From NCBI GenBank assembly GCA_964527565.1, contig CAZGOY010000001.1, positions 66,495 through 130,494 on the forward strand: a stretch of DNA of 64,000 nt, in the 5' to 3' direction. Of this stretch, positions 9,283 to 51,084 are shown in pieces. The position numbers and the translations under genes were made by a program. The DNA comes from an uncultured Sulfuricella sp. (GTDB lineage: Bacteria > Pseudomonadota > Gammaproteobacteria > Burkholderiales > Sulfuricellaceae). Within the stretch, counting starts at the first letter, position 1. Each line of letters begins with the position of its first letter. The notes beneath the pieces are model-generated. The model was given only the letters and a program-made list of their open reading frames with translations. It searched no databases and had not been told where the DNA came from.

Positions 9283-10172
9283 GGCAGCCCTCTTTCTCCC
9301 TCGTGGTGGCACGGTAGCAGGCCGCCCTCACCGGTTTCCACCGGGCGGGCCGGGTCGGTGATCCATTCGCTCCACGAACCGGGGTAAAGCCGGGAGCCGT
9401 GCAGGCCGGCGGCCTCCATGGCCAGAATGTTGTGGCAGGCGGTGACGCCGGAGCCGCAGGTGTGGATGACGTTTTCCGGCGCTTGTCCGCCGAGCAGGTT
9501 CAGATAGCTGTCGCGCAATTCCTCGGCGGGCAGGAAGGTGCCGCCCATGTCGAGGTTTTCCTCGAACGACCAATTGCACGAGCCGGGGATATGGCCGGCT
9601 ACCTTGTCTAGCGGTTCGCGCTCTCCGGTGAAGCGTTCTTCAGGGCGCGCATCGACGATGCGGCGGTCAAGGGCATGGCGGGCGGCATCGACTTCGGTGA
9701 CGTCCGCCCAGGTGTTGCGGTTGGGCCGGGCGCTGAATTGCGCCGGCGAAACGACGGGCATTTCCTGGGTCACGGGGTATTTGTCGCGCTTCCAGCGCGG
9801 CAGGCCGCCGTCGAGCAGGGCGACCGCATCGTGTCCCAGCCAGCGCAACAGCCACCACAGGCGCACAGCCATGCTGCCGAAACTGTCGTCGTATACCACC
9901 ACCTGCGTGCCGGGGCCGACGCCCCACTGGCCGAGCTTGTACGCAAGCGCCTCGGGATCGGGCAGGGGGTGGCGCCCGCTGGTGGAAGTGATCGGGCTGG
10001 ACAGGTCTTCATCGAGGTGCGCGTAACGCGCGCCGGGAATATGCCCGGCGGCATGGGCGCGCCGTCCGGCATCGGGGTCGGTGAGCGTGAAGCGGCAGTC
10101 GAACACCACCCAATCCGGGTCGTTGAGATGCTGCGCCAGTTGCGCGCAGGAGAGGAGTGTCGTGAATTTCAT
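9273..10172 (-). CDS. sseA: 3-mercaptopyruvate / thiosulfate sulfurtransferase (tandem rhodanese domains)
   Basis: 299 aa; active-site loop 'CGSGVTA' is typical of MST-type rhodaneses; also 'GHIPGA'. Confidence 0.85.
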   Translation of the reverse strand: MKFTTLLSCAQLAQHLNDPDWVVFDCRFTLTDPDAGRRAHAAGHIPGARYAHLDEDLSSPITSTSGRHPLPDPEALAYKLGQWGVGPGTQVVVYDDSFGSMAVRLWWLLRWLGHDAVALLDGGLPRWKRDKYPVTQEMPVVSPAQFSARPNRNTWADVTEVDAARHALDRRIVDARPEERFTGEREPLDKVAGHIPGSCNWSFEENLDMGGTFLPAEELRDSYLNLLGGQAPENVIHTCGSGVTACHNILAMEAAGLHGSRLYPGSWSEWITDPARPVETGEGGLLPCHHEGERGLPCA

Positions 10173-10229
10173 GTCTTGACGTGGGTATGAGGTGTCGGGG
10201 GCGAGGCGTCCGCCTCACCCCTCGCAAGG

Positions 10230-10562
10230 TCAGTAGCCGCCTTTGCCGAATGGCTTAGGCAAACCGGCAACCTTGGCGGACTGGCGGTTGGGTTGCATCG
10301 GGAACAGCGTGTAAAGGTGTTTTTTCCAGTCGGTGCCGGGGTGGCTGGCGTCGAAATCCTTGCACATGTTGCGGAAGTTCGGGGTGTGACCATGCTCCTT
10401 GTACTGCTCGCGCATGTAGTTGATGACCGTCCAGTGGTCGTCGGTAAGCTTGAGGCCTTCGGATTCGGCGATCACCGGCACTACGTCATCGCTGTAATCG
10501 GCTTCCAGCAGAAAACCCTCGTCGTCGGTCTCAAGTTCGGCGCCATTCACGGTGTAGCTCAT
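10230..10562 (-). CDS. TusE/DsrC-family protein lacking both C-terminal arm cysteines
   Basis: 110 aa, collinear with the genuine DsrC at 15476-15808. The arm reads 'RQSAKVAGLPKPFGKGGY' instead of 'KQACKIAGLPKPTGCI'. Confidence 0.85.
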   Translation of the reverse strand: MSYTVNGAELETDDEGFLLEADYSDDVVPVIAESEGLKLTDDHWTVINYMREQYKEHGHTPNFRNMCKDFDASHPGTDWKKHLYTLFPMQPNRQSAKVAGLPKPFGKGGY

Positions 10563-10607
10563 GGTATTTCCTCCTTTTGGTTGAGTGTGGGTAAAAATAA
10601 ATATGGA

Positions 10608-11174
10608 TTATACGAGTGCATTGATCGATTTGTGCGGAATGAAAACCCCGCAGCCCAGCTTGCGGTTGCCGCCCAGTCCCAGTTGCTGGACGCGGATGGC
10701 GTGTTCGACCGGCAGGCCGTGTAGCATCAGGCTGAAACCGGCCACCGCGCCATCCTCGGTGGTGAGGGTTTGCTGGCGGCCGCAAATGAAGCGGGTATCT
10801 ATGCCCAATTCATCGAGCAGGCGCATGATGTCGCGGGCAAAATCGCCTTCGTCGGCGCTGCCGGTGGTCACCAGTTGGGCATATAGCGGGGTGTGATGCG
10901 TCAGCGCCTTGACCTTGCCGGCACCGATAAGCAGCGCGTTGCCGACTACGCTGATGGTCTGGCCGTCCAGGGCCAGCGTGTCGTCCAGGCGTTCTTGCGG
11001 GATGCGGATCACCAGCTTGGCACGCCGGTTGAGGAGCAGCGTGCCATCGCCGCAGTCGGAGCCGTGCAGCGGGTGAATAGCGGCCAGGTTTTCCTGCGCC
11101 AGCCAGGGCAGCAGGCGCGCCAGTTCATCGAACAGGGCAAGGCCGTGATCCTTGGGGACGCGTGTGCCGCTCAA
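10608..11174 (-). CDS. Cas6/Cmx6-like RAMP-superfamily protein (orphan; no CRISPR array or other cas genes in the window)
   Basis: C-terminal glycine-rich loop 'QQLGLGGNRKLGCGVFIPHK', plus 'VPKDHGLALFDELARLLPWL' and 'IHPLHG' resembling the orphan type I-MYXAN Cas6/Cmx6 family as I remember it. The listed start is a TTG. The frame stays open 23 codons further upstream (to 11243) with no ATG/GTG/TTG. Confidence 0.5.
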   Translation of the reverse strand: MSGTRVPKDHGLALFDELARLLPWLAQENLAAIHPLHGSDCGDGTLLLNRRAKLVIRIPQERLDDTLALDGQTISVVGNALLIGAGKVKALTHHTPLYAQLVTTGSADEGDFARDIMRLLDELGIDTRFICGRQQTLTTEDGAVAGFSLMLHGLPVEHAIRVQQLGLGGNRKLGCGVFIPHKSINALV

Positions 11175-32702: not shown

Positions 32703-33104
32703 ATGCGGATACACATTCAGTCGTCAAGCTTTGTACTTACCGAAGGTATACGTGAACATGCCGTGCGCCGCTTGAGATTCGCCTTGTCGCACGTGGCCGA
32801 TCACATCCGGCGCGTCACTGTCCATCTGTCCGACATCAATGGGCCGCGCGGGGGGGTGGATAAATGCTGCCGCATGGTGGTGACGATGGAGAAACTTGCG
32901 GAAATCGCCGTTGAAGACATCGAAAATGACCTCTATGTCGCCATTGACCGCGCGACCAGCCGCGCCGCACGTACAGTGACGCGCAACATTGATCGTAGCC
33001 GGGCGCAGCGCAAAAACAGTGCGCCGGGGCAGGAAATTCCTTCGCCCTGTGAAGCGGAGGGTCATAGGGATGAAAGGCGGAATGGAGAGAATCGGAGTGG
33101 TTGA
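32703..33104 (+). CDS. HPF/RaiA (S30AE) family ribosome-associated protein
   Basis: 'MRIHIQSSSFVLTEGIREHAVRRL...VTVHLSDINGPRGGVDKCCRMVV' fits the sigma-54 modulation / ribosome hibernation fold. Confidence 0.65.
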   Translation: MRIHIQSSSFVLTEGIREHAVRRLRFALSHVADHIRRVTVHLSDINGPRGGVDKCCRMVVTMEKLAEIAVEDIENDLYVAIDRATSRAARTVTRNIDRSRAQRKNSAPGQEIPSPCEAEGHRDERRNGENRSG

Positions 33105-34173
33105 CTGTGCAGGCCGAGACGTGGGCGCCGTTTCGGAAAAATCGGAAAATATCTCGCTGGCAACAGATCTGCTGCGGAAGGGCGGGGTGGTCGCCTTTCC
33201 TACCGAAACGGTCTATGGGCTGGGTGCGGATGCTGCCAATCCGCAGGCGCTGCTTCGGATATTCAAACTCAAGAAACGCCCACTCGATCACCCGCTGATC
33301 ATTCATATCGGCGATGCCGGGCGGCTGAATTATTGGGCGTCCAGAATTACAGACGACGCTTGGCGGCTTGCCGAGCTTTTCTGGCCCGGGCCGCTCACCT
33401 TGATTCTGCCGCGTCGCATCCATGTGCTGACGCTGGTTACCGGGGGGCAGGAAGCCGTAGGGCTGCGGGTGCCCGACCATCCGGTGGCGCTCGCGCTGCT
33501 GCGCAGCCTCGGCGAGGAAAAAGGGCTGGCTGCGCCATCCGCGAACCGTTTCGGGCGCGTCAGTCCGACTACCGCCGACCATGTGCGGACGGAGTTAGGT
33601 GATGGGGTCGACATGATCCTCGATGGCGGCCCCTGTCGGGTCGGCCTGGAATCCACCATCGTCGGCTTCACTGGTGCTGCGCCGGTGTTGCTGCGGCCCG
33701 GTGGGATACCTGCCGAATTGCTGGAAGATTCGCTCGGGTGCAAGCTTGAAAGGCCTGCTGCCAGCCCGCCGGAAATCCGGGCGTCGGGCTGCCTGCCATC
33801 CCATTATGCTCCATCCACGCCACTGGAAGTCTGGTCTGCCGGAACCCTGTGGCAGCGGGCAGAAGCGCTTTCGGTTCAAGGGAAACGTGTGGCGATTCTG
33901 GAAATGGATATGGAGCCACCTCCAGAAAGCTGCCAACAATTTCATTTTCCCATGCCGACGGGTGCGAAGGCCTATGGCCGCGCACTCTACGCCACCCTGC
34001 GTGCTGCGGACAGTGGTGGATTCGACCTCATTCTGGCGCAAATGCCGCCGCAAACCACCGCCTGGCAGGCGGTGGATGACCGGCTGCGGCGCGCCGCCAC
34101 GCTTTACTGTCCGGGTGCACCGCTGCCGCCTTTTCCGTCCCGCAGCGGAAAACCGGCGATTCCGGCCAAGTAG
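33070..34173 (+). CDS. tsaC: L-threonylcarbamoyladenylate synthase (Sua5/YwlC/TsaC, long form)
   Basis: 'VVAFPTETVYGLGADAANPQAL..KKRPLDHPLIIHI', 'WPGPLTLIL', 'APSANRFGRVSPT'. Start uncertain (ATG 33070 or 33082). Confidence 0.85.
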   Translation: MKGGMERIGVVDCAGRDVGAVSEKSENISLATDLLRKGGVVAFPTETVYGLGADAANPQALLRIFKLKKRPLDHPLIIHIGDAGRLNYWASRITDDAWRLAELFWPGPLTLILPRRIHVLTLVTGGQEAVGLRVPDHPVALALLRSLGEEKGLAAPSANRFGRVSPTTADHVRTELGDGVDMILDGGPCRVGLESTIVGFTGAAPVLLRPGGIPAELLEDSLGCKLERPAASPPEIRASGCLPSHYAPSTPLEVWSAGTLWQRAEALSVQGKRVAILEMDMEPPPESCQQFHFPMPTGAKAYGRALYATLRAADSGGFDLILAQMPPQTTAWQAVDDRLRRAATLYCPGAPLPPFPSRSGKPAIPAK

Positions 34174-35078
34174 CGGTTCGCCAGATTGTGGCTTTCCTGC
34201 TTGAGGAAATCCATGAAGGTGGCGGCGACCACCGTCAGGCGCTTGTCGCCGGGGTAGGCGGCGAACCACTGGCGGCGGATCGGGAAACCGGCTACGTCGA
34301 GCACTGCCAACTCCTCGCTGTTCCTTTCCAGCGCCAGGGTGTGCGCCGACAGCACGGCGAGGCCCAAGCCGCCGACCACCGCCTGCTTGATCGCCTCGTT
34401 GCTGCCCAGTTCCATGCGGATTTTGGGCGCCATCCCTTGCTCAGCGAAAAAGCGTTCGGCGGCGAGCCTAGTGCCCGAGCCCGGCTCGCGCACCAGGAAA
34501 TACTCTTGCGCCAAACGCTCCAAGGATACGTTTTCCTTGCCCGCCAGTGGGTGGTCGCGGGGGGCAAGCACCACCAGCGGGTTTTCCAGAAAGGGCTCGG
34601 CGCAGACATCCATGTGTTCGGGCGGCTGGCCGAGTATGTAGAGATCGTCCTGGTTGTCGGCGAGGCGTTGCAAAACTCTTTCCCGGTTGGTTACCTTGAG
34701 CGACACCTCAATGCCGGGATAGCGCTCGTAAAAAGCCCCAAGCAGGCGCGGGATGAAATATTTTGCGGTGGTGACCGCAGCGAGGCGCAATTTACCGGCC
34801 TTCACGCCCTTCATGTCAGAGATCAGCATCTCGAAACGCGACAGCTCTTCTAATATGAGTTGGCACAAGGCTTCCAGTTCGCGTCCCACATCAGTCAGGA
34901 AAATCCGCTTGCCGACCTGTTCCAGCAGGGGCAGGCCGACGATGTCCGTCAACTGTTTGATCTGGATGGAGACGGTGGGCTGGGTAAGGTGCAACTCCTC
35001 GGCGGCGCGGGTGAAGCTGAGATGGCGCGCCACCGCCTCGAACACTTTGAGCTGGCGCAATGAGGCATGTTTCATCAT
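34104..35078 (-). CDS. cbbR: LysR-family RuBisCO operon regulator CbbR
   Basis: 'LRQLKVFEAVARHLSFTRAAEELHLTQPTVSIQIKQL'; divergent from cbbL. Confidence 0.9.
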   Translation of the reverse strand: MMKHASLRQLKVFEAVARHLSFTRAAEELHLTQPTVSIQIKQLTDIVGLPLLEQVGKRIFLTDVGRELEALCQLILEELSRFEMLISDMKGVKAGKLRLAAVTTAKYFIPRLLGAFYERYPGIEVSLKVTNRERVLQRLADNQDDLYILGQPPEHMDVCAEPFLENPLVVLAPRDHPLAGKENVSLERLAQEYFLVREPGSGTRLAAERFFAEQGMAPKIRMELGSNEAIKQAVVGGLGLAVLSAHTLALERNSEELAVLDVAGFPIRRQWFAAYPGDKRLTVVAATFMDFLKQESHNLANRYLAGIAGFPLRDGKGGSGAPGQ

Positions 35079-37376: not shown

Positions 37377-38186
37377 ATGAGCGACACCACCCACGACCAG
37401 TTCCTGGTCAAAAGCCAACCCTACTATCGTCCGGTGGCCGACGAAGTGGATCTGTACGAGGCCGCCTACAACGCGCGCATGCCGGTCATGCTCAAGGGGC
37501 CGACCGGCTGCGGCAAATCGCGCTTTGTCGAATACATGGCGTGGAAACTCGGCAAGCCGCTGATTACGGTAGCCTGCAACGAGGACATGACCGCTTCTGA
37601 CTTGGTCGGGCGTTTCCTCCTCGACATCAATGGCACCCGGTGGCAAGACGGCCCGCTGACCACCGCAGCCCGCCTCGGCGCTATCTGCTACCTGGACGAA
37701 GTGGTCGAGGCGCGCCAGGACACCACCGTGGTAATCCACCCGCTGACCGACCACCGGCGCAACCTGCCGCTGGAGAAGAAGGGCGAAGTGGTAGAAGCCC
37801 ACCCCGATTTCCAGATTGTGATTTCCTACAACCCCGGCTACCAGAGCCTGATGAAGGATCTCAAGCAATCCACCAAGCAGCGCTTCGGCGCTATGGATTT
37901 CGACTACCCCGACGCCGCCGTCGAATCCGAGATCGTCGCCCACGAATCCGGCGTCGACGCCAAGACCGCCGAGAAGCTGGTTCAGGTCGCGGCGCGCAGC
38001 CGCAACCTCAAGGGCCACGGCCTGGACGAAGGCATGTCCACCCGCCTGCTGGTCTACGCCGGCCAGCTCATCGCCAAGGGCATCGCCCCGGCGCGCGCCT
38101 GCCGTATGGCGCTGGTGCGTCCGCTGACCGACGACCCCGACATGCGCGACACGCTGGACGCGGCGGTGGAAACTTTCTTCGGCTGA
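37377..38186 (+). CDS. cbbQ: CbbQ, MoxR-type AAA+ RuBisCO activase subunit
   Basis: 269 aa; '[18 protein letters not shown]' Walker A and 'YLDEVVEAR' Walker B. Confidence 0.95.
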
Positions 38187-38238
38187 AACGAACCGGCGGC
38201 CTTGCCGCTCCCCCCCACCTACATGACGAGGAACGGCC

Positions 38239-40569
38239 ATGAGCATCAATCTTGACGACTATCGGGACGACCTGGTCAAGGCCGCGCCCGAACTTGAAAA
38301 CACCCTGGACGCCTCCTTCCACGAGGCGGCGCGGACAATGTCGCCCACCGGCCTTAAGGACTGGCTTGACGGCGCACGCGGCATCGTGAACCTGGGCAAG
38401 GACGCTACCCTGCTTACCACTTACTTGAACGAAATGCCGCTGGTAGCCAAGGAGTGCGGCGAGGACGTCATCCGCGAGTGTGTGCATGCGGTGATGAAGC
38501 TTGCTTCGATGGCCTCGGGCGAGGTGCTCGCCCTGGTATTCGCCACCCTGCCCACCGCCGCCCGCCGCTTGGGCGACCCGGAGTTGCTGCGCGCCTACCT
38601 GCAATTGCTGCACCGGCTCGCGGCCAAGGCGCCGCGCGGCCTGCGCCCAATGCTCGGAGTGCTCGACGAGTTGCTTGGCAAACTCACTCTGTCCGGCCTG
38701 CGCCGCTGGGTGGATTTCGGCGCCGACGCCTATCGCCGCGACCTGCCTAGGCAAGCCGCCTATTTCTCGCTGCAAAGCGAGGACAGCAAGGCCGTCCTCC
38801 AGCAGGAACGGCGCGGCACCCTGTTCATCGACAGCCAGCGCAAGCTGAATTTCTATCTGCGCGCCTTCTGGGGGCGGGATTTCTATCTGCGCCCGGTTGC
38901 CGCCGACTACTTGGGCTTCCGCCCCTTCATCGAGGCGCGCGCGCTGCACCTGCCCGACGCTGCCGACGATCTCGGCGGATTGAGCGGCCAGGAACTGTAC
39001 CGCGCCATGAGCGCCCACATGGCCGCGCACCTGGCCTACACCAGCGAACCGCAGTCCGCCGAGGCGCTCGCCCCGGCGCAGCAGTTCTTTGTCGGCTTCA
39101 TCGAGGATGCGCGGGTGGAATGGTGCGCGGCGCAGGCGTTTCCCGGCATGCGCCGCCTGTGGAAAGCCTTCATGGTGCTGCCCAAGCCGGGGCACCCCGA
39201 ACACGAGTCGGTCGATCTGCTGGAGCGCGCCGCCCTGGCGCTGCTCGACCCGGTCGAGCGCAGCGGCGACGCCGAGGTGGACGGTATCGTCCTGCAATTC
39301 CACAGTAACATCGCCGCCAACCGCGACAACGGCATGTTCTCCTGGAATCTCGGGCTGGACCTGTTCAACCTGCTGGCCGCCCGGCGCGCCGTGCCGAGCC
39401 TGCGCATCCTGGAAAACCTGCGCATTCCCTACCGCGACGACAACCGCTTCGTCTGGTCGCTCGACCAGTTCGACTGGAGCGAATCCAGCGCTTATCTGCC
39501 GGCCAGCCAGCGCCAGACGAGGAAACACGTCGGCCTGATGGAATTCATCAACGAAATCGACGTGGAAAACGCCGGCGACGATGCCCAGGAAATCTGGGTG
39601 CTCAACAGCGAGCTGTTTCCCTACGAGGACGAAGGTGTCTCCTACAACCAGATGGAAGGCAAGGAGCCGGTTTCCGATCCCTACCATTATCAGGAGTGGG
39701 ACTACCAGGTGCAGTTGCACCGCCCCAACTGGGCTACTGTTTACGAACGGCGCCAGGGGCGCGGCGACCCGGCGCTGGTTGAGGAGGTGCTCACCGCCCA
39801 CAAGGGCGTGAGCCACCGCATCAAGCAGATCATCGACCGCCTGCGCCCGCAGGGCGTCTCGCGCCAGCGGAAACTGGAAGACGGCGACGAACTGGACATC
39901 AACGCCGCGGTGGACGCCATGGTGGCGGCGCGCATCGGACTCAACCCCGACCCGCGCATCACCATGCGCAACGTTATCAACCGCCGCGACCTGGCGGTGG
40001 TGATCCTGCTCGACCTGTCCGAATCCACCAACGAGAAGGTGCGTGGCACGGAGAAATCCGTGCTGGAGCTGACCCGCGAGGCCAGCGCCCTGGTGGCCAC
40101 CGCCATCTCGGGCATCGGCGATCCCTTTGCGATCCACGGTTTCTCATCGGATGGACGGCTCGACGTGCAGTACTTCCGCTTCAAGGATTTCGAACAGCGT
40201 TTCGACGGCGACGCGAAATCGCGCTTGGCGGGCATGAAGGGCGGCCTGTCTACCCGCATGGGCGCGGCCATGCGCCACGCCGGGCGGCACCTGCTGCAAC
40301 GCAGCGAGAAGCACAAACTGCTGCTGATCGTCACCGACGGCGAACCGGCGGACATCGACGAACGCGATCCGCAATATCTGCGCATGGACGCCAAGAAGGC
40401 CACGGAGGAACTGCGCAGCAGCGGCATCCAGTCCTATTGCCTGACCCTGGACCCGCAAGCCGACCGTTACGTGGAACGCATTTTCGGCGCCAACAACTAC
40501 ACGGTCATCGACCATGTGCAACGGCTGCCGGAAAAGTTGCCGGCACTGTTCGCCGCGCTGACGCGATGA
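38239..40569 (+). CDS. cbbO: CbbO, von Willebrand factor A-domain RuBisCO activase adaptor
   Basis: 776 aa following cbbQ; C-terminal VWA MIDAS 'LLDLSESTN' and 'LLLIVTDGEPAD'. Confidence 0.9.
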   Translation: MSINLDDYRDDLVKAAPELENTLDASFHEAARTMSPTGLKDWLDGARGIVNLGKDATLLTTYLNEMPLVAKECGEDVIRECVHAVMKLASMASGEVLALVFATLPTAARRLGDPELLRAYLQLLHRLAAKAPRGLRPMLGVLDELLGKLTLSGLRRWVDFGADAYRRDLPRQAAYFSLQSEDSKAVLQQERRGTLFIDSQRKLNFYLRAFWGRDFYLRPVAADYLGFRPFIEARALHLPDAADDLGGLSGQELYRAMSAHMAAHLAYTSEPQSAEALAPAQQFFVGFIEDARVEWCAAQAFPGMRRLWKAFMVLPKPGHPEHESVDLLERAALALLDPVERSGDAEVDGIVLQFHSNIAANRDNGMFSWNLGLDLFNLLAARRAVPSLRILENLRIPYRDDNRFVWSLDQFDWSESSAYLPASQRQTRKHVGLMEFINEIDVENAGDDAQEIWVLNSELFPYEDEGVSYNQMEGKEPVSDPYHYQEWDYQVQLHRPNWATVYERRQGRGDPALVEEVLTAHKGVSHRIKQIIDRLRPQGVSRQRKLEDGDELDINAAVDAMVAARIGLNPDPRITMRNVINRRDLAVVILLDLSESTNEKVRGTEKSVLELTREASALVATAISGIGDPFAIHGFSSDGRLDVQYFRFKDFEQRFDGDAKSRLAGMKGGLSTRMGAAMRHAGRHLLQRSEKHKLLLIVTDGEPADIDERDPQYLRMDAKKATEELRSSGIQSYCLTLDPQADRYVERIFGANNYTVIDHVQRLPEKLPALFAALTR

Positions 40570-40651
40570 AGCATGCATGATGGAAATTCAGCAGCGAGCC
40601 GCCATGGTGGCCGACGATTGGGCAATGCAAACCCCTCATGAAAATTTAACC

Positions 40652-41548
40652 ATGATTCATACGATATTTCAGTCCAGCGTTAATAGCCTGAAACTTCTAC
40701 ATCGTGGAAAAGTGCATGAGGTTTATGAGATCAACGGCCAGTTCCTGCTGATAGTCGCCACCGACCGTCTGCCCGTGTTCGAAATGGTGTTGCCAACACC
40801 GGTCCCGGACAAGGGTAAGGTGCTGACGGAATTGTCACGCTTCTGGTTCGGCAGGCTTGAGCATATCTTGCCCAACCATCTGACCGGCATGCCGCCGGAA
40901 ATCATGGTTGCTCCGCGGGAGTATGCGCAGATATGGCGGCGCGCTGTCGTGGTGAAAAAGCTTGTACCGTTGCCGGTCAAGGCCGTCGTGCGTGGTTACC
41001 TGGTCGGCGCCGGATGGAAGGAATACCGGAAGCACCATAGCGTGTGCGGTATTCCCCTGACCGCCGGGCTGCTGGAAGCCGACAAGCTGTTTCCCCCATT
41101 ACTTACCCTCTCAAGAAAGGCAAAGGAGGGCTCCCATCATGATGAAAACATCGGCTTCGCAGTAGCGGAAGAACTGCTCGGCAAGGAATTAGCCACTCAA
41201 ATACGCGGCATTTCCAACGCACTGTATACGGAAGCCAGCACTTATGCGCAGTCGCGTGGCATCGTCATCGTTGAGGCCAGCTTTGAGTTCGGCCTGGATG
41301 AGCGGGGAGAACTACATCTGATCGGCGAGGTGCTGACACCGGATTCCGCCTCCTTCTGCGCACTGGATCAATACCGTCCAGGGCACGCGGCGCCCAGCTT
41401 CGACAAGCAGCATGTCCATGACTGGCTGAAATATCGGGGCTGGAACAAACGGTTTCCCGGGCCGGAATTGCCTCCTGATGTTGTTGCCAAAACCATTGAA
41501 AAATATCGTGAATTGCTGATTCGGCTCACAGACCGGATTGGCGGATGA
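40652..41548 (+). CDS. SAICAR synthetase (PurC)-like protein, divergent at several catalytic positions
   Basis: Collinear with long-form PurC ('RGKVHEVY', 'ATDRLPVFE', 'NHLTG', 'VVRGYLVGAGWKEY', 'HHDENI', 'FEFGLDERG', 'EVLTPDS', 'SFDKQ'), but with substitutions described in the findings. AT-richer than its neighbours. Start uncertain (40577 or 40652). Confidence 0.7.
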   Translation: MIHTIFQSSVNSLKLLHRGKVHEVYEINGQFLLIVATDRLPVFEMVLPTPVPDKGKVLTELSRFWFGRLEHILPNHLTGMPPEIMVAPREYAQIWRRAVVVKKLVPLPVKAVVRGYLVGAGWKEYRKHHSVCGIPLTAGLLEADKLFPPLLTLSRKAKEGSHHDENIGFAVAEELLGKELATQIRGISNALYTEASTYAQSRGIVIVEASFEFGLDERGELHLIGEVLTPDSASFCALDQYRPGHAAPSFDKQHVHDWLKYRGWNKRFPGPELPPDVVAKTIEKYRELLIRLTDRIGG

Positions 41549-42438
41549 GTACTGTCATGCCGAGGATAAACCGGGATCTGAGCAGGGCACCAGTGGACGG
41601 CAGCATTTATTCGGGGCGCAGGGTGGCGCTGCTTACCCGTCATGGCAAGGAAAAGATCATCGCACCGGCACTGGTGCAGTCATTGGGTTGCCTGGTGACG
41701 CATGTGGATAGCTTCGACACCGATCAACTGGGCACCTTTACCCGCGATATTCCGCGCGACGGCACCCAACTCGAGGCGGCGCGCAGGAAGGCGCGCCTCG
41801 GCATGGAACTGGCGGGCCTCCCCCTGGGCATCGCCAGCGAGGGCAGCTTCGGGCCGGATCCGTTCTTCGGAATGTTTTCCTGGAACGTGGAGATGATTGT
41901 CTGGATTGACGATCTGCTCGGCATCGAGGTGGTGGGGATCGCTTCGGGCAAGGCCAGCATCGCCCACCGGATCACGGCGGACTGGACGGATGCCGAGGCC
42001 TTCGCCAGCGGAGCGGGCTTTCCCGAACATGGTTTGGTGGTGCGCCCGCAGTGCGAGGATGATTCCCGCATCCGCAAGGGTATCACCGACTGGCAGCGGC
42101 TCCGCGAAGCCTTCCACTGGGCCTGCGGCGAAGCGGATAACGGTTGTGCCTTCATGGAAACCGACGTGCGCGCCCATTTGAATCCGACGCGCATGGCGAC
42201 GATCGGCCTGGCGGCCAGTGATCTGGCGCGCAAACTTGGTACCCGCTGTCCGGCCTGCGGGATACCGGGCTTCCAACTGGCCGAGGGTGTTCCCGGCCTG
42301 CCATGCGAGGATTGCGGCGCCCCGACCCGGGAAGTTCGGGCGGAAATCCATCTTTGTGTAAAATGCGGCCACCGGGTGACCGTGCAGTTGCCTTCAGTGT
42401 CCGCTCCTGCGGGCCGTTGCGACAGTTGCAACCCCTGA
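41545..42438 (+). CDS. Hypothetical protein with C-terminal four-CxxC zinc ribbon
   Basis: 297 aa. Its ATG overlaps the PurC-like stop (ATGA). The C-terminus carries 'CPACG', 'CEDCG', 'CVKCG' and 'CDSCNP'. Confidence 0.6.
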   Translation: MSTVMPRINRDLSRAPVDGSIYSGRRVALLTRHGKEKIIAPALVQSLGCLVTHVDSFDTDQLGTFTRDIPRDGTQLEAARRKARLGMELAGLPLGIASEGSFGPDPFFGMFSWNVEMIVWIDDLLGIEVVGIASGKASIAHRITADWTDAEAFASGAGFPEHGLVVRPQCEDDSRIRKGITDWQRLREAFHWACGEADNGCAFMETDVRAHLNPTRMATIGLAASDLARKLGTRCPACGIPGFQLAEGVPGLPCEDCGAPTREVRAEIHLCVKCGHRVTVQLPSVSAPAGRCDSCNP

Positions 42439-42454
42439 CAAGGAATTAACGCGC

Positions 42455-43402
42455 ATGCCCGCTCTCGATCCTGTCGTCATGTTTTTCCTGCTGGGGCTGG
42501 CTGCCGGCCTGCTGCGCGCCGAGTTGCGTCTGCCGCCGGCGATCTACGAATTTCTCAGCACCCTGTTGCTGCTTGCCATCGGTTTGAAGGGCGGCGTGGA
42601 ACTGGCCAGGCAGCCGTTCGGTGCGCTGCTTCCGCAAATGCTGGCCGTGGCGCTGATGGGCGTCCTGCTGCCGCTGGCCGCCTACCCCGTGCTGCGCTTC
42701 GCGGGGCGCTTCAAGCGGGCCGATGCGGCATCCATCGCCGCCCATTACGGTTCGGTGAGCGTGGGCACCTACGCAGTCGCGGTAGCCTACCTCGCCTACC
42801 GGCAGGTTTCCTTCGAGGAGTACATGCCGGTGTTACTGGTGCTGCTGGAGATGCCTGCCATCGTGTTGGGGGTCCTGCTGGCGCGCGGGATAAACAAGAA
42901 TACGCCCTGGGGCTCAATGGCTCACGAGGTGTTGCTGGGCAAGAGCATGGTGCTGCTGTTCGGCGGCTTGCTCATTGGCTGGGCAGGCGGGGCTGAGGGG
43001 ATTAAACCCATTGAGGGGCTGTTCTTCGATCTGTTCAAGGGGGTGCTTGCGCTTTTTCTGCTGGAAATGGGGTTGATCGCGGCGGGCCAAGTGGGCAGCC
43101 TGCGCCGCCACGGCCTTTTCCTGCTGGCTTTCGGCCTGCTAATGCCGCTCGCTTCAGCGCTCGTGGGCGCAGTGCTCGCCTGGGTGCTGGGGCTATCCGT
43201 GGGCGGCACGGTGCTGCTTGCAACACTCGCGGCGAGCGCCTCCTACATCGCGGTTCCGGCGGCCATGCGCCTGTCGGTGCCGGAAGCCAATCCAACGCTG
43301 TCGCTGGCCGCTTCGCTGGGGGTGACTTTTCCTTTCAATATCCTGGTGGGCATTCCTCTTTACCACTGGCTCGCCGAGCACATCCATCGCCTGGGAGGGT
43401 GA
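42455..43402 (+). CDS. Sodium-dependent bicarbonate transporter family permease (SbtA-like)
   Basis: 315-aa polytopic protein. 'MPALDPVVMFFLLGLAAGLLRAELRLPPAIYEFLSTLLLLAIGLKGG' matches the Sbt_1 family as remembered. It is followed by a PII-like gene. Confidence 0.7.
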   Translation: MPALDPVVMFFLLGLAAGLLRAELRLPPAIYEFLSTLLLLAIGLKGGVELARQPFGALLPQMLAVALMGVLLPLAAYPVLRFAGRFKRADAASIAAHYGSVSVGTYAVAVAYLAYRQVSFEEYMPVLLVLLEMPAIVLGVLLARGINKNTPWGSMAHEVLLGKSMVLLFGGLLIGWAGGAEGIKPIEGLFFDLFKGVLALFLLEMGLIAAGQVGSLRRHGLFLLAFGLLMPLASALVGAVLAWVLGLSVGGTVLLATLAASASYIAVPAAMRLSVPEANPTLSLAASLGVTFPFNILVGIPLYHWLAEHIHRLGG

Positions 43403-43408
43403 CGCACC

Positions 43409-43711
43409 ATGACCATCGAACGCCGCAAGCTGATTACCATCGTCACCGAGGCAGCGCTTGAGCACGAACTCGTCCTCGAGATCGAACGTCTGGGGGCGCA
43501 CGGCCACACCATTACCGATGCCCGCGGCAAGGGCAGTCGCGGCATCCGCGACGCCGGCTGGGGGTGCAACGCCAACGTCCGCATCGAGGTGGTCTGCGCC
43601 GCGGACATCGCCTATGCCATCGCTGCCGCGCTCAGGGCGCGCTACTATGACAACTACGCCATGATTCTGTATATCGGCGATGTGGAAGTGCTGCGCCCGG
43701 AAAAGTTCTGA
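43409..43711 (+). CDS. PII-like signalling protein (SbtB-like partner)
   Basis: 100 aa; 'KLITIVTEAALEHELVLEIERLGAHGHTITDARGKGSRG' shows the beta-alpha-beta PII pattern with a T-loop-like 'GKGSRGIRDAG'. Confidence 0.7.
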   Translation: MTIERRKLITIVTEAALEHELVLEIERLGAHGHTITDARGKGSRGIRDAGWGCNANVRIEVVCAADIAYAIAAALRARYYDNYAMILYIGDVEVLRPEKF

Positions 43712-43742
43712 CGGAATATATGACAGGAAGATACTTGAGAAT

Positions 43743-46550
<2,808 letters not shown>

Positions 46551-46587: not shown

Positions 46588-47085
46588 ATGAGCGAACAAG
46601 TCAAAGTCGGCATCGTCATGGGCAGCAGCAGCGACTGGGAAGTCATGCGCCACGCCTGCGAAATGCTGCGCAATCTCGGCGTGCCCTATGAGGCACGGGT
46701 GGTTTCGGCCCACCGCACCCCCGACCTGCTGTTCCACTACGCCGAAGACGCCCAGGCGCGTGGCCTGGCCTGCATCATCGCCGGCGCGGGCGGCGCGGCC
46801 CACCTGCCCGGCATGCTGGCGGCCAAGACCGCGCTGCCGGTGCTGGGCGTGCCGGTGCCGTCGCGCTACCTGAAGGGCATCGACTCCCTGCTGTCCATCG
46901 TGCAGATGCCCAAAGGCATCCCGGTCGCCACCTTCGCCGTGGGCGAGGCGGGCGCGGCCAATGCCGCGCTGTTCGCCACCGCCCTGCTGGCGCGCCACGA
47001 TCCGAGCATCGCGCTCCGCCTGGAGGCATTCCGTGCTGCCCAAAGTGAGGCCGCGCTAACCTCGACCCTGCCGGAACTGCCATGA
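46588..47085 (+). CDS. purE: N5-carboxyaminoimidazole ribonucleotide mutase
   Basis: 165 aa; '[14 protein letters not shown]', 'SAHRTPD', '[13 protein letters not shown]'. Confidence 0.95.
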
Positions 47086-48227
47086 TCCTGCCGCCATCCA
47101 CTCTGGGTATCCTCGGCGGCGGCCAGCTCGGTCGTATGTTCGCCGTGGCCGCGCGCACCATGGGCTACCGCGTGATGGTGCTGGACCCTGACCCGGACAG
47201 CCCGGCAGCCGCGCTGGCCGACATTCATCTGTGCGCCGGTTACCGCGACCCTGCCGCGCTGGAGCGCATGGGCCGCGCTTGCGCGGCGGTGACCACCGAA
47301 TTCGAAAACATCCCGGCGGACAGCCTGGAATTCCTCGCGCAGTTCTGTCCGGTGCGCCCCGGCGCGACCGCCGTCGCGGTCGCCCAGGATCGCCGCCGCG
47401 AGAAAACCTTCCTGCAATCCCACGGGTTTTCCACGGCGCCGTTCGCCGCCGTGGAAAACTACGGCGATCTTGCCGTGGCTTTCCAGTGTGTCGGCGCGCC
47501 CGCCCTGCTCAAGACCGCCCGCATGGGCTACGACGGCAAGGGGCAGGAGCGGATAAACAGCCATGCCGAGCTGCGGGCGGCATTTGAGCGGCTGGGCACC
47601 GCGCCCTGCGTGCTTGAAGCCTGGCTGCCGCTGCGCACGGAAATCTCGGTGGTGGTGGCGCGCGGCGCGGACGGCCAGAGCGTAGCCTTTCCGGCGGCGG
47701 AGAACCGGCACGCCAACGGTATTCTCGACATCAGCGTCGCCCCCGCGCCGGTCGCTAGGGAGCTGTCCGAGCAGGCGCTCGATGCCGCCACGGCTATCGC
47801 CGCTGCGCTCGATTATTGTGGCGTGCTGGCGGTGGAGTTCTTCGTGCTCGACAACGGGCAGTTGCTGGTCAACGAGATCGCGCCGCGTCCCCACAACAGC
47901 GGCCACTACACCCAGAACGCCTGTCTCACCTCACAGTTCGAGCAGCAGGTGCGGGCGCTGGCGGGCCTGCCGCTGGGCGCACCCGACCTGCTGAGTCCAG
48001 CCGCGATGGTCAACCTGCTCGGCGACTTGTGGCAGGATGGGCGCGAACCGTCATGGGGCAACGTGCTGAGCCAGCCGCGCGCCAAGCTGCACCTCTATGG
48101 CAAGCGGGGAGCCCGCCCCGGTCGCAAGATGGGGCATTTCAACGTGCTGGCAGAAAGCGCCGATGCCGCGCTCAGGACAGCGCTCGAGCTGCGCGACGCT
48201 CTGGCAGCGGATGAATCACCCCGATAA
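47082..48227 (+). CDS. purK: N5-carboxyaminoimidazole ribonucleotide synthase
   Basis: 381 aa; ATP-grasp '[11 protein letters not shown]', 'YDGKGQ', '[12 protein letters not shown]'; overlaps the purE stop. Confidence 0.95.
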
Positions 48228-49704: not shown

Positions 49705-51084
49705 TTACTTGTGCACGCCCAGCTTTTCGCGCCAGCCGGGGAAAATCCTGTCGGCATCATGCGGGAAGGACTCGAAGGCGCGGGCGAATTCCTTGTGCTG
49801 CTTGGCCCACTCGATCGGGTCGGCACCGGCCTTCCAGCACTCGTAGGACTGGCGCAGGGAGATCGCGCCGGCCGCCGGGCTGTCGATGTGGCCGAGGGCA
49901 CCGCCGCCTGCGGTGTTGATGACGTTGCCGTGGCCGAGGTTCTCGAAGAAGCCGGGCAGGCGCAACGCGTTCATGCCGCCGGAGATGATCGGCGTGGTGG
50001 CCTTCATGCCATACCATTCCTGATGGTAGTAGGGGCCGTCGGCGGAGTCGCGCTCGATCATGTAGGCGATGTTGCGGTCATCCTGCGCACCTTCCATCTT
50101 GCCGTAACCCATGGTGCCGACGTGGATGCCGGAGGCGCCCTGCAGGCGGGACATCTTGGACAGGCAGAATGCGGTGTAGCCGCGCAGCGCGGACGGCGAG
50201 GTCACGGCGCCGTGGCCGGCACGGTGGTAGTGGAGGAACTGGTTGGGATACTGGCGGCGGCAGGTGGTAACCATGCCGGGGCCGCCGACGTAGCCGTCGA
50301 CCAGAAAGGCCACCTTGTTGGCATCCGGGCCGAAGGTTTCCAGGATGTAATCGGCGCGGGCGAGCATTTCGTAATGATCGTCGGCGGTGATGTTGGCGGA
50401 GAATAGCTTGGCTTGGCCGGTCTCATCCATGGCACGCCGCATGGAATCAACCACCAGCGGGATCACTTTTTTGGTGGGGCAGAACACCTGGTTGCCTTGC
50501 GGCTCGTCGTTCTTGATGAAGTCGCCGCCCAGCCAGAATTGATAGCAGGCCTTGGCGAAGGGCTCGGGACGCAGGCCCAGCTTGGGCTTGATGATGGTAC
50601 CGGCGATGTAGCCGCCATCAACGCGTGGGCGACCGAGAATCTCCCACATGTCGGCGATGTTCATCGCCGGGCCGTCGTACTGGCGCAGAATCGAGCGCGG
50701 CACATAGAAATCGTGCATCTTCAGGCACTTGACGTCGCCCTGACCCTGGTTGTTGCCGATGCACAGAGTCAGGAACGACACCAGCATGGTACGACCGTCG
50801 ATGATGTTGCGGTCGAACAGGTCGATCGGGTAGGCGACTTTCATCACGCCCTTGGCTTCGTCGATGAAATACACCAGCGCGTCCACGCCCTTGGTGAAGT
50901 CATCGGTGGTGCATACTTCGACATTGGTGCCGGTAGAGGATTCGGCGGCGATGTGCGCGGCGACTTCCAGGTAGCCATATCCGGCGGCTGGCTGCATGTG
51001 ATAAGCGACGAGCACATGCTTGTCGCCCTTGATGAGGTCTTCTTCCTTCAGGCTTAGATCGGCATAACGATTTGATTGATCCAT
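49705..51084 (-). CDS. cbbM: RuBisCO form II
   Basis: 459 aa; '[18 protein letters not shown]', '[35 protein letters not shown]'. Confidence 0.97.

Follow-up and report, generated by a model that had tools for sequence, protein, structure and literature searches.

A SAICAR synthetase homologue with an ablated active site inside a RuBisCO and bicarbonate-transport operon of an uncultured Sulfuricella

The subject of this work is a gene which we call purC', a divergent homologue of the gene for long-form phosphoribosylaminoimidazole-succinocarboxamide (SAICAR) synthetase, PurC, located in a stretch of 64,000 nucleotides (hereafter the window) from an uncultured Sulfuricella sp. (assembly GCA_964527565.1, contig CAZGOY010000001.1, positions 66,495 to 130,494). 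The gene order across the region is cbbR, cbbL, cbbS, cbbQ, cbbO, purC', a DUF6671 gene, an Sbt_1 permease, a P-II/SbtB-like gene, ppc, purE, purK and a fused aldolase, with cbbR alone on the minus strand and all the remaining genes on the plus strand. A sequence-only reading of the window had placed here a degenerate PurC paralogue, set between cbbO and a bicarbonate transporter, whose stop codon overlaps (ATGA) the start of a 297-aa open reading frame (ORF), and we find both the setting and the overlap as it described them. From our analysis, purC' is probably a catalytically disabled descendant of a purC resident in this operon, which survives as a non-catalytic protein of the PurC fold.

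Membership of the long-form SAICAR synthetase family, claimed earlier from the letters alone, is borne out by the family profiles: the purC' product scores about 169 bits (169.3-169.8; cut-off 20) with PF01259 (SAICAR_synt) and 357.9 bits with NF010568, above the cut-off of 251, and with TIGR00081 it reaches 185.5 bits, just under the cut-off of 189.9. It was also rightly called a paralogue, since a second, canonical purC is found elsewhere in the genome, on contig C88 (G000:C88, 293 aa), with all four motifs discussed below intact and with scores of 255.8 bits for PF01259 and 258.5 bits for TIGR00081. The two proteins are 59% identical, and the identity of purC' to canonical betaproteobacterial PurCs is 59-62%. 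By full-length PF01259 score purC' is the lowest among 61 related genomes, the 59 genomes with a PurC scoring 243-288. The AlphaFold2 model of the protein (predicted local distance difference test score, pLDDT, 85.7) is matched by Foldseek to yeast SAICAR synthase 1obg at E = 6.9e-35, with template-modelling (TM) scores of 0.86/0.91 and a root-mean-square deviation of 1.6 Å, and the SAICAR-synthase fold is predicted to be retained. In the alignment with the C88 protein the homology starts at M26 of purC', and residues 1-27 are predicted to be disordered (pLDDT <50). The candidate ATGs at 40577, 40604 and 40652 all lack a clear Shine-Dalgarno sequence ahead of them, and the true start could be any one of the three.

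The four altered motifs on which the sequence-only reading was based are confirmed by the alignment with the C88 PurC: TDRLSAFD has become TDRLPVFE, ADTKFEFG has become VEASFEFG, IDEALTPDSSRFW has become IGEVLTPDSASFC, and TPSTKA has become TLSRKA. The consensus quoted in that reading was correct, its residues being 98-100% conserved in 119 close canonical PurCs. As an invariant set we took the 119 alignment columns with a conservation of 98% or more among these 119 proteins, 25 of them belonging to the active site and 94 lying elsewhere. purC' is changed at 25 of the 119 columns, namely at 13 of the 25 active-site positions and at 12 of the 94 others (odds ratio 7.4, p = 8.5e-5), so that 82 of the latter are unchanged, and this distribution suggests that the damage targets the active site and spares the scaffold. 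The active-site changes are present in none of the 119 close PurCs.

The substitutions were mapped by alignment to Escherichia coli PurC, each residue identity being verified at its E. coli number (K13, S33, D36, K82, E90, R94, S100, D129, D175, K177, E179, D191, D196, R199, K211 and R215), and the E. coli ligand residues match the active-site list of human PAICS at a constant offset (PMC9376930). In human PAICS, E97 and D137 bind two Mg2+ ions, and T40, K191, K228 and R232 bind the aspartate substrate (PMC9376930). The Mg2+-coordinating acids compared here are E. coli E90, D129, E179 and D191 (human E97, D137, E193 and D207), and the aspartate-binding residues are S33, K177, K211 and R215 (human T40, K191, K228 and R232). 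The thirteen replacements, from E. coli to purC', are K13 to H47, S33 to P66, A34 to V67, D36 to E69, E90 to K135, S100 to A145, D175 to E233, F176 to A234, K177 to S235, D191 to G250, S198 to A258, R199 to S259 and R215 to H281; at the K13 and F176 positions the long-form residues are R and T, respectively. Kept are G10, K11, K82, R94, K123, D129, E179, D196 and K211, which correspond to G44, K45, K127, R139, K181, D189, E237, D256 and K277 of purC'.

Grouped by ligand, these changes remove two of the four Mg2+ ligands (E90K, D191G) and leave D129 and E179, and the same is seen in the one close relative of purC', the sister copy introduced below. Three of the four aspartate-binding residues are lost (S33P, K177S, R215H), K211 alone being kept, and the sister has G at position 177. 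The pocket for the 5'-phosphate of carboxyaminoimidazole ribonucleotide (CAIR), which we take to be formed by E. coli R94, S100 and R199 (the residue identities were verified in the sequence), has lost two of its three ligands (S100A, R199S), and R94 is kept in the window copy and is H in the sister. The nucleotide loop G44-K45-V46 is kept together with K127, H47 taking the K13 position, and nucleotide binding may survive. As a whole, the catalytic and substrate-binding residues of purC' are largely ablated, and it is very probable that the protein no longer makes SAICAR.

In a search of 5.8 billion proteins purC' has one close relative, P0122, with 87% identity, and the next matches are all canonical PurCs at 62% identity or less; a wider PurC' family, considered as a candidate, was rejected on this result. 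P0122 carries the derived residues of purC' and an N-terminal extension of similar sequence. Its gene lies on a 3.1-kb metagenome contig (L022) after a homologous cbbO tail and before a DUF6671 gene, which it overlaps by ATGA, and sbtA; the identical 4-nt overlap joins a canonical purC to DUF6671 in L024. Each of the two genes has 323 codons, with zero indels between them, and they differ by 49 nonsynonymous (Nd) and 46 synonymous (Sd) changes, which gives a pN/pS of 0.34 (Fisher p = 4e-8), similar to the 0.31 of the DUF6671 gene. Such a ratio indicates that purC' is not a free-running pseudogene and that the protein has been subject to selection ever since the two lineages diverged; judged by this codon comparison, the gene is under purifying selection. 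Catalytic residues are lost and the remaining protein is constrained, which is the combination by which a pseudoenzyme is recognised, and the earlier wording of a pseudoenzyme or a repurposed ligase was a fair reading of the letters.

As regards the origin of the gene, the C88 purC shares 94-95% identity with its counterparts in congeners and groups in the tree with the purC genes of three congeners, which points to C88 as the vertically inherited copy. A comparison of C88 with the window gave a single match, between purC and purC', which are 69% identical at the nucleotide level. In the congeners G005 and G001 (L109, L110) the housekeeping purC stands directly upstream of cbbM, the gene of form II RuBisCO; in the source genome cbbM (49705-51084) no longer has a purC neighbour, and purC is on the 2.3-kb contig instead. 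DUF6671, sbtA and a second purC were found in none of the five congeners. In the Sulfurimicrobium-type genome G032, with contig L026, cbbL-S-Q-O is followed by a canonical purC, and the 3' end of a canonical purC is followed by DUF6671-sbtA-sbtB-sua5, the sbtA being 93% identical to that of the window. Other relatives have the arrangements sbtA-sbtB-sua5-DUF6671-purE-purK-purC and ppc-purC-purE. These same or similar operon positions indicate that the slot of purC' is one in which this lineage ordinarily carries a genuine purC. Two purC fragments of G032 (L106 = G032:C373 and L007 = G032:C163) share an overlap of 244 nt, in which they are only 81% identical, and may represent two copies or two strains, the catalytic motifs being intact in both. 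Some related metagenome bacteria carry a 504-aa fusion of PurC to beta-carbonic anhydrase (PF01259 + PF00484; L112:8001-9515, also P0132, P0133, P0148 and P0163), with a canonical PurC part, in an operon of the form cbbR-cbbLSQO-fba...purC::CA-purE-fba.

The sliding-window identity of the window to L022 is 0.87-0.93 from the end of cbbO to about 41750 and 0.69-0.87 after this point, and the identity to L026 is 0.62-0.69 before it and 0.82-0.94 after it. The locus is thus a recombination mosaic, the upstream part of which is nearest to L022 and the downstream part nearest to the Sulfurimicrobium-type L026. At synonymous sites the window differs from L022 with a pS of 0.20 in purC' (0.18 at 4-fold sites) and of 0.40-0.43 in DUF6671 and sbtA, and this difference of about one half between adjacent genes fits a mosaic with its breakpoint near 41750. 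The mosaic suggests that the dead allele was moved or retained by homologous recombination along with some 70 codons from the start of the DUF6671 gene; the exchange between the window and the L022/L026 types could have gone either way. Horizontal acquisition, one of the earlier suggestions, fits with the block being missing from five congeners and closest to that of another genus. The pair had also been described as AT-richer than its flanks, and this is true of purC' (GC 0.549; GC at third codon positions, GC3, 0.63 versus 0.75-0.86 for the neighbours) and does not extend to DUF6671 beyond its first ~200 nt (GC of the entire gene 0.636).

Table 1. Coordinates of purC' and of associated features in the window.
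Feature	Coordinates	Strand	Details
cbbO (RuBisCO activase subunit with von Willebrand factor A domain)	38239-40569	+	ORF; stop codon 8 nt ahead of the purC' ATG
purC' (divergent long-form SAICAR synthetase homologue, ablated active site)	40577-41548	+	323 aa
N-terminal extension of purC', without counterpart in canonical PurC	40577-40651	+	25 codons
ATGA overlap of purC' stop and DUF6671 start (putative translational coupling)	41545-41548	+	read in the sequence
DUF6671 (PF20376) gene	41545-42438	+	297 aa; Pfam 141.5 bits
Approximate recombination breakpoint (putative)	41700-41800	.	sliding-window identities; located where the AT-richer stretch ends
Four CxxC pairs of DUF6671 (C235...C295), two zinc ribbons	42247-42429	+	eight Cys invariant in 25 homologues
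sbtA-like bicarbonate permease	42455-43402	+	Sbt_1, 381.6 bits
P-II/SbtB-like gene	43409-43711	+	P-II, 76 bits
purE	46588-47085	+	TIGR01162, 208.6 bits
purK	47082-48227	+	NF004677, 571.9 bits

The order DUF6671, sbtA, P-II/SbtB recurs in L022 and L026. No promoter-like site was found in 38000-44000, and terminator-like matches there scored no higher than the shuffled background; purE and purK share the strand of purC', with no predicted terminator between purC' and these two genes. The longest ORF of ppc begins 32 nt inside the sbtB-like gene (window 43680-43711), and the true ppc start may be downstream. The purK of the window is the only copy in the genome, and purE is present in two copies, the second of which (contig C25, L114:6468-6974; TIGR01162 193 bits) is 50% identical to the window purE and is followed by a gene for a 194-aa YrdC/TsaC-like protein (L114:7002-7586). 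Beside the cbb operon lies a gene for a Sua5/TsaC2-type L-threonylcarbamoyladenylate synthase (32989-34173, plus strand; TIGR00057 185 bits), which overlaps the 3' end of cbbR (34104-35078, minus strand); Sua5/TsaC2 is a bicarbonate-using enzyme, and the TsaC-like gene on C25 is a second, shorter one.

The protein encoded downstream of purC' had been described as ending in four CxxC pairs and belonging to no familiar family. The pairs are there (C235/238, C254/257, C271/274 and C292/295), their cysteines being invariant in the homologues aligned, and the family is a catalogued one, Pfam DUF6671, the cut-off of which is 23.8 bits. A conserved body of the alpha/beta type (residues ~25-232) precedes a double zinc ribbon. 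The AlphaFold2 model (pLDDT 86.3) has no match in the PDB at E <= 0.001, the best being the ITPase 2j4e (E = 8.7e-3, TM 0.25/0.37), with CinA and Maf similar (E ~0.01, TM no higher than 0.28). When 25 members were scanned against Pfam at E <= 10, weak zinc-ribbon matches were the sole outcome, and no ITPase, Maf or YjjX-like family appeared. No paper mentioning DUF6671 was found in the literature.

The homologues of DUF6671 number 2,439, with identities of 56-84%, and come from Proteobacteria, Actinobacteria, Firmicutes, Nitrospirota, Campylobacterota, Acidobacteriota and Planctomycetota, and at least 554 stretches of the species-genome collection match it; the neighbourhoods were counted in 80 genome loci, within the fetched flank. 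dabA, dabB or sbtA is a neighbour in 38 of them, sua5 in 25, an amidohydrolase gene in 24, a gene for an unannotated protein of ~185 aa in 19, purE in 10 and icd in 6. DUF6671 comes after dabB-dabA in Acidithiobacillus and Ferrovum and is near dabBA/cbbO in Sulfuriferula. The ~185-aa protein and Amidohydro_1 (dihydroorotase-like) are often encoded 3' of DUF6671 (L017:8937-9494 and 9667-10638; L024:1817-3553), and neither is next to it in the window. A conserved PurC'-DUF6671 pair, looked for as a candidate, was rejected: purC is beside DUF6671 in one of the 80 loci, and that purC is canonical. The suggestion of a dedicated partner therefore fails, PurC' being known from two sequences and nearly all of the thousands of DUF6671 homologues being without an adjacent PurC. 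We conclude that DUF6671 is an independent and widespread accessory of inorganic-carbon uptake systems, and that its adjacency to purC' is inherited synteny and not a conserved two-gene system, because purC normally stands inside the cbb/inorganic-carbon operon of the lineage.

Several observations weigh against the survival of purC' as a selected non-catalytic protein, and signs of weakening are among them. GC3 is 0.63-0.66 in purC' and P0122 versus ~0.8 in canonical purC and the neighbours; private departures from the PurC consensus number 15 in the window copy and 4 in the sister (p = 0.012); and former active-site positions differ between the two (S235/G, A258/S, C261/W, R139/H). The faster change of the window copy and the drift at these positions suggest that it may be sliding toward loss. 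The clade has two known members only, C88 is a contig of 2.3 kb whose assignment to the genome rests on binning (contamination 0.72%), and the AlphaFold2 model was driven by an alignment rich in canonical PurCs, which makes the retained fold a prediction. On the tree, the stem of purC' and P0122 measures ~1.0 substitution per site versus 0.03-0.2 for canonical branches, and because of this long branch the parentage is not significantly resolved: approximately unbiased (AU) tests reject neither a sister of the own-genus purC (p = 0.43) nor a sister of the G032 operon purC (p = 0.62), and the tree in which purC' is constrained to join the G032 operon copies exceeds the free tree in likelihood and is the best of the trees compared. 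From the weakening signs it could be argued that purC' is a functionless redundant gene in decay, its frame still open as the decay is recent and as stops or frameshifts would hit the coupled translation of DUF6671, sbtA, sbtB, ppc and purEK downstream. The ATGA overlap would then be the reason for the open frame, the drop in GC3 is what AT-biased mutation under relaxed selection is expected to produce, and the acceleration of the window copy, the variation at former catalytic positions and the smallness of the clade among 5.8e9 proteins are all in line with it. We regard such decay as unlikely, if worth serious attention, since polarity selection by itself would leave missense changes unconstrained, and the observed pN/pS is far below 1 in a frame free of indels; most of the non-catalytic invariant positions (82/94) are unchanged, and ~120 replacements relative to canonical PurC (41% of aligned residues) came without one stop.

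Catalysis might alternatively have been changed or kept. A neofunctionalised ATP-dependent ligase, joining another acid and amine and working with DUF6671, for example on a carboxylated or carbamoylated intermediate tied to bicarbonate use, would agree with the remodelling of exactly the acceptor (Asp) and CAIR-phosphate pockets, with the retention of the nucleotide loop, K82, D129, E179 and D196, with a burst on the stem followed by purifying selection, and with the co-inheritance of purC' and the 5' part of its DUF6671 neighbour. Two of the Mg2+ ligands needed for phosphoryl transfer are lost, however (E90K, D191G), the remodelled positions are unfixed (S/G at 235, A/S at 258, R/H at 139), although a new catalytic site would be expected to be fixed, and there is no wider family of such proteins, so that we hold this reading to be quite improbable. 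That purC' still functions as a SAICAR synthetase, as an isozyme whose expression goes with that of the Calvin-cycle operon, might be gathered from its passing NF010568 and Pfam and from the habit of relatives to have purC at this operon position. It is hardly credible for a protein that has replacements at 13 of the 25 invariant positions of the active site, among them Mg2+ ligands and the Arg and Lys that bind substrate, in a way seen in 0 of 119 close PurCs, which stays under the TIGR00081 cut-off, and whose genome has a normal purC elsewhere.

We propose, returning to a disabled descendant of the operon purC, that the ancestor would be a genuine purC inside a cbbLSQO-purC-DUF6671-sbtA-sbtB operon of sulfur/iron-oxidising betaproteobacteria, and that the presence of the housekeeping purC now on C88 made this operon copy redundant. 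On one long stem branch it would have lost the residues E90, D191, S33, K177, R215, S100 and R199, GC3 dropping from about 0.8 to 0.63, and would have retained the SAICAR-synthase fold, the G-K-V nucleotide loop, K82 and E179 within a 323-codon ORF kept free of indels in two lineages. The gene and the 5' end of its DUF6671 neighbour may have been exchanged together by homologous recombination, and the product of purC' would be made in a fixed ratio with DUF6671 through translational coupling. That PurC' persists as a non-catalytic PurC-fold protein acting by binding is the view toward which we lean, if only by a little. Candidate binding partners may be DUF6671, in view of the coupled translation and the co-inherited 5' end, or PurE/PurK, in view of PurC being a central interactor of both in E. 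coli, where two-hybrid data show PurK, PurE and PurC as central interactants (review PMC10912719). A PurC'-DUF6671 complex, in which the former ligase binds an adenine nucleotide or purine intermediate as a sensing or regulatory subunit, is a speculative and rather doubtful extension of this proposal. If it were true, the complex would tie the SbtA/SbtB carbon uptake or the bicarbonate-consuming PurK-PurE step to the nucleotide status of the cell, and PurC' would be an enzyme-derived regulator of the CO2-concentrating machinery.

These findings are of importance for annotation, as the NCBI equivalog model would name purC' a SAICAR synthetase and a metabolic reconstruction would count a purC that is almost certainly non-working. 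For evolution, the locus may offer a clean and datable case of bacterial pseudoenzyme formation, with the active site stripped and the scaffold under selection, an intact purC in the same operon slot of a relative, and evidence of a dead allele moving by recombination. With regard to physiology, the clustering of purC, purE/purK, sua5 and ppc with DUF6671 and bicarbonate transporters further supports the view that in many bacteria the genes of bicarbonate-using enzymes stand beside carbon transporters, DUF6671 being the main unknown among them.

Compared with known systems, the window DUF6671 is a typical companion of DabBA/SbtAB transporters by its Pfam score, its eight invariant cysteines and its place next to sbtA-sbtB. 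A purC-type gene stands ahead of it in the window and at three further loci, whereas most members follow dabA, sua5 or icd and otherwise stand ahead of the ~185-aa protein and the amidohydrolase. The PurCs of cbb/inorganic-carbon operons occupy the same slot as purC' in G032 and L026, with cbbO ahead of them and DUF6671-sbtA behind, and elsewhere adjoin purE, ppc or fba, the fusion to beta-carbonic anhydrase included; unlike purC', these operon PurCs of relatives keep every catalytic motif. No paper describing a PurC pseudoenzyme was found in the literature, and a conceptual analogy can be drawn with the trypanosome S-adenosylmethionine decarboxylase (AdoMetDC) 'prozyme' (PMC5201418), a dead paralogue that acts by binding. 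As with the prozyme, purC' has an active enzyme as its paralogue and has had catalytic residues replaced, with the fold (as predicted) kept and purifying selection acting on it; unlike the prozyme, it forms a clade of two sequences and has candidate partners only. The closest of all is the long-form PurC itself (EC 6.3.2.6; PF01259, NF010568), with solved structures of yeast Ade1 (1a48, 1obg, 2cnq) and of Mycobacterium abscessus PurC (6yvq), with which purC' shares the family profile, the predicted fold, the G-K-V loop and the equivalents of K82, D129, E179, D196 and K211. It differs in the loss of E90, D191, S33, K177, R215, S100, R199, K13, D36 and D175, in the 25-residue disordered N-terminal extension and in being a second copy beside a normal purC, and can be viewed as an apparent pseudoenzyme variant, in two known sequences, of a very well-known family.

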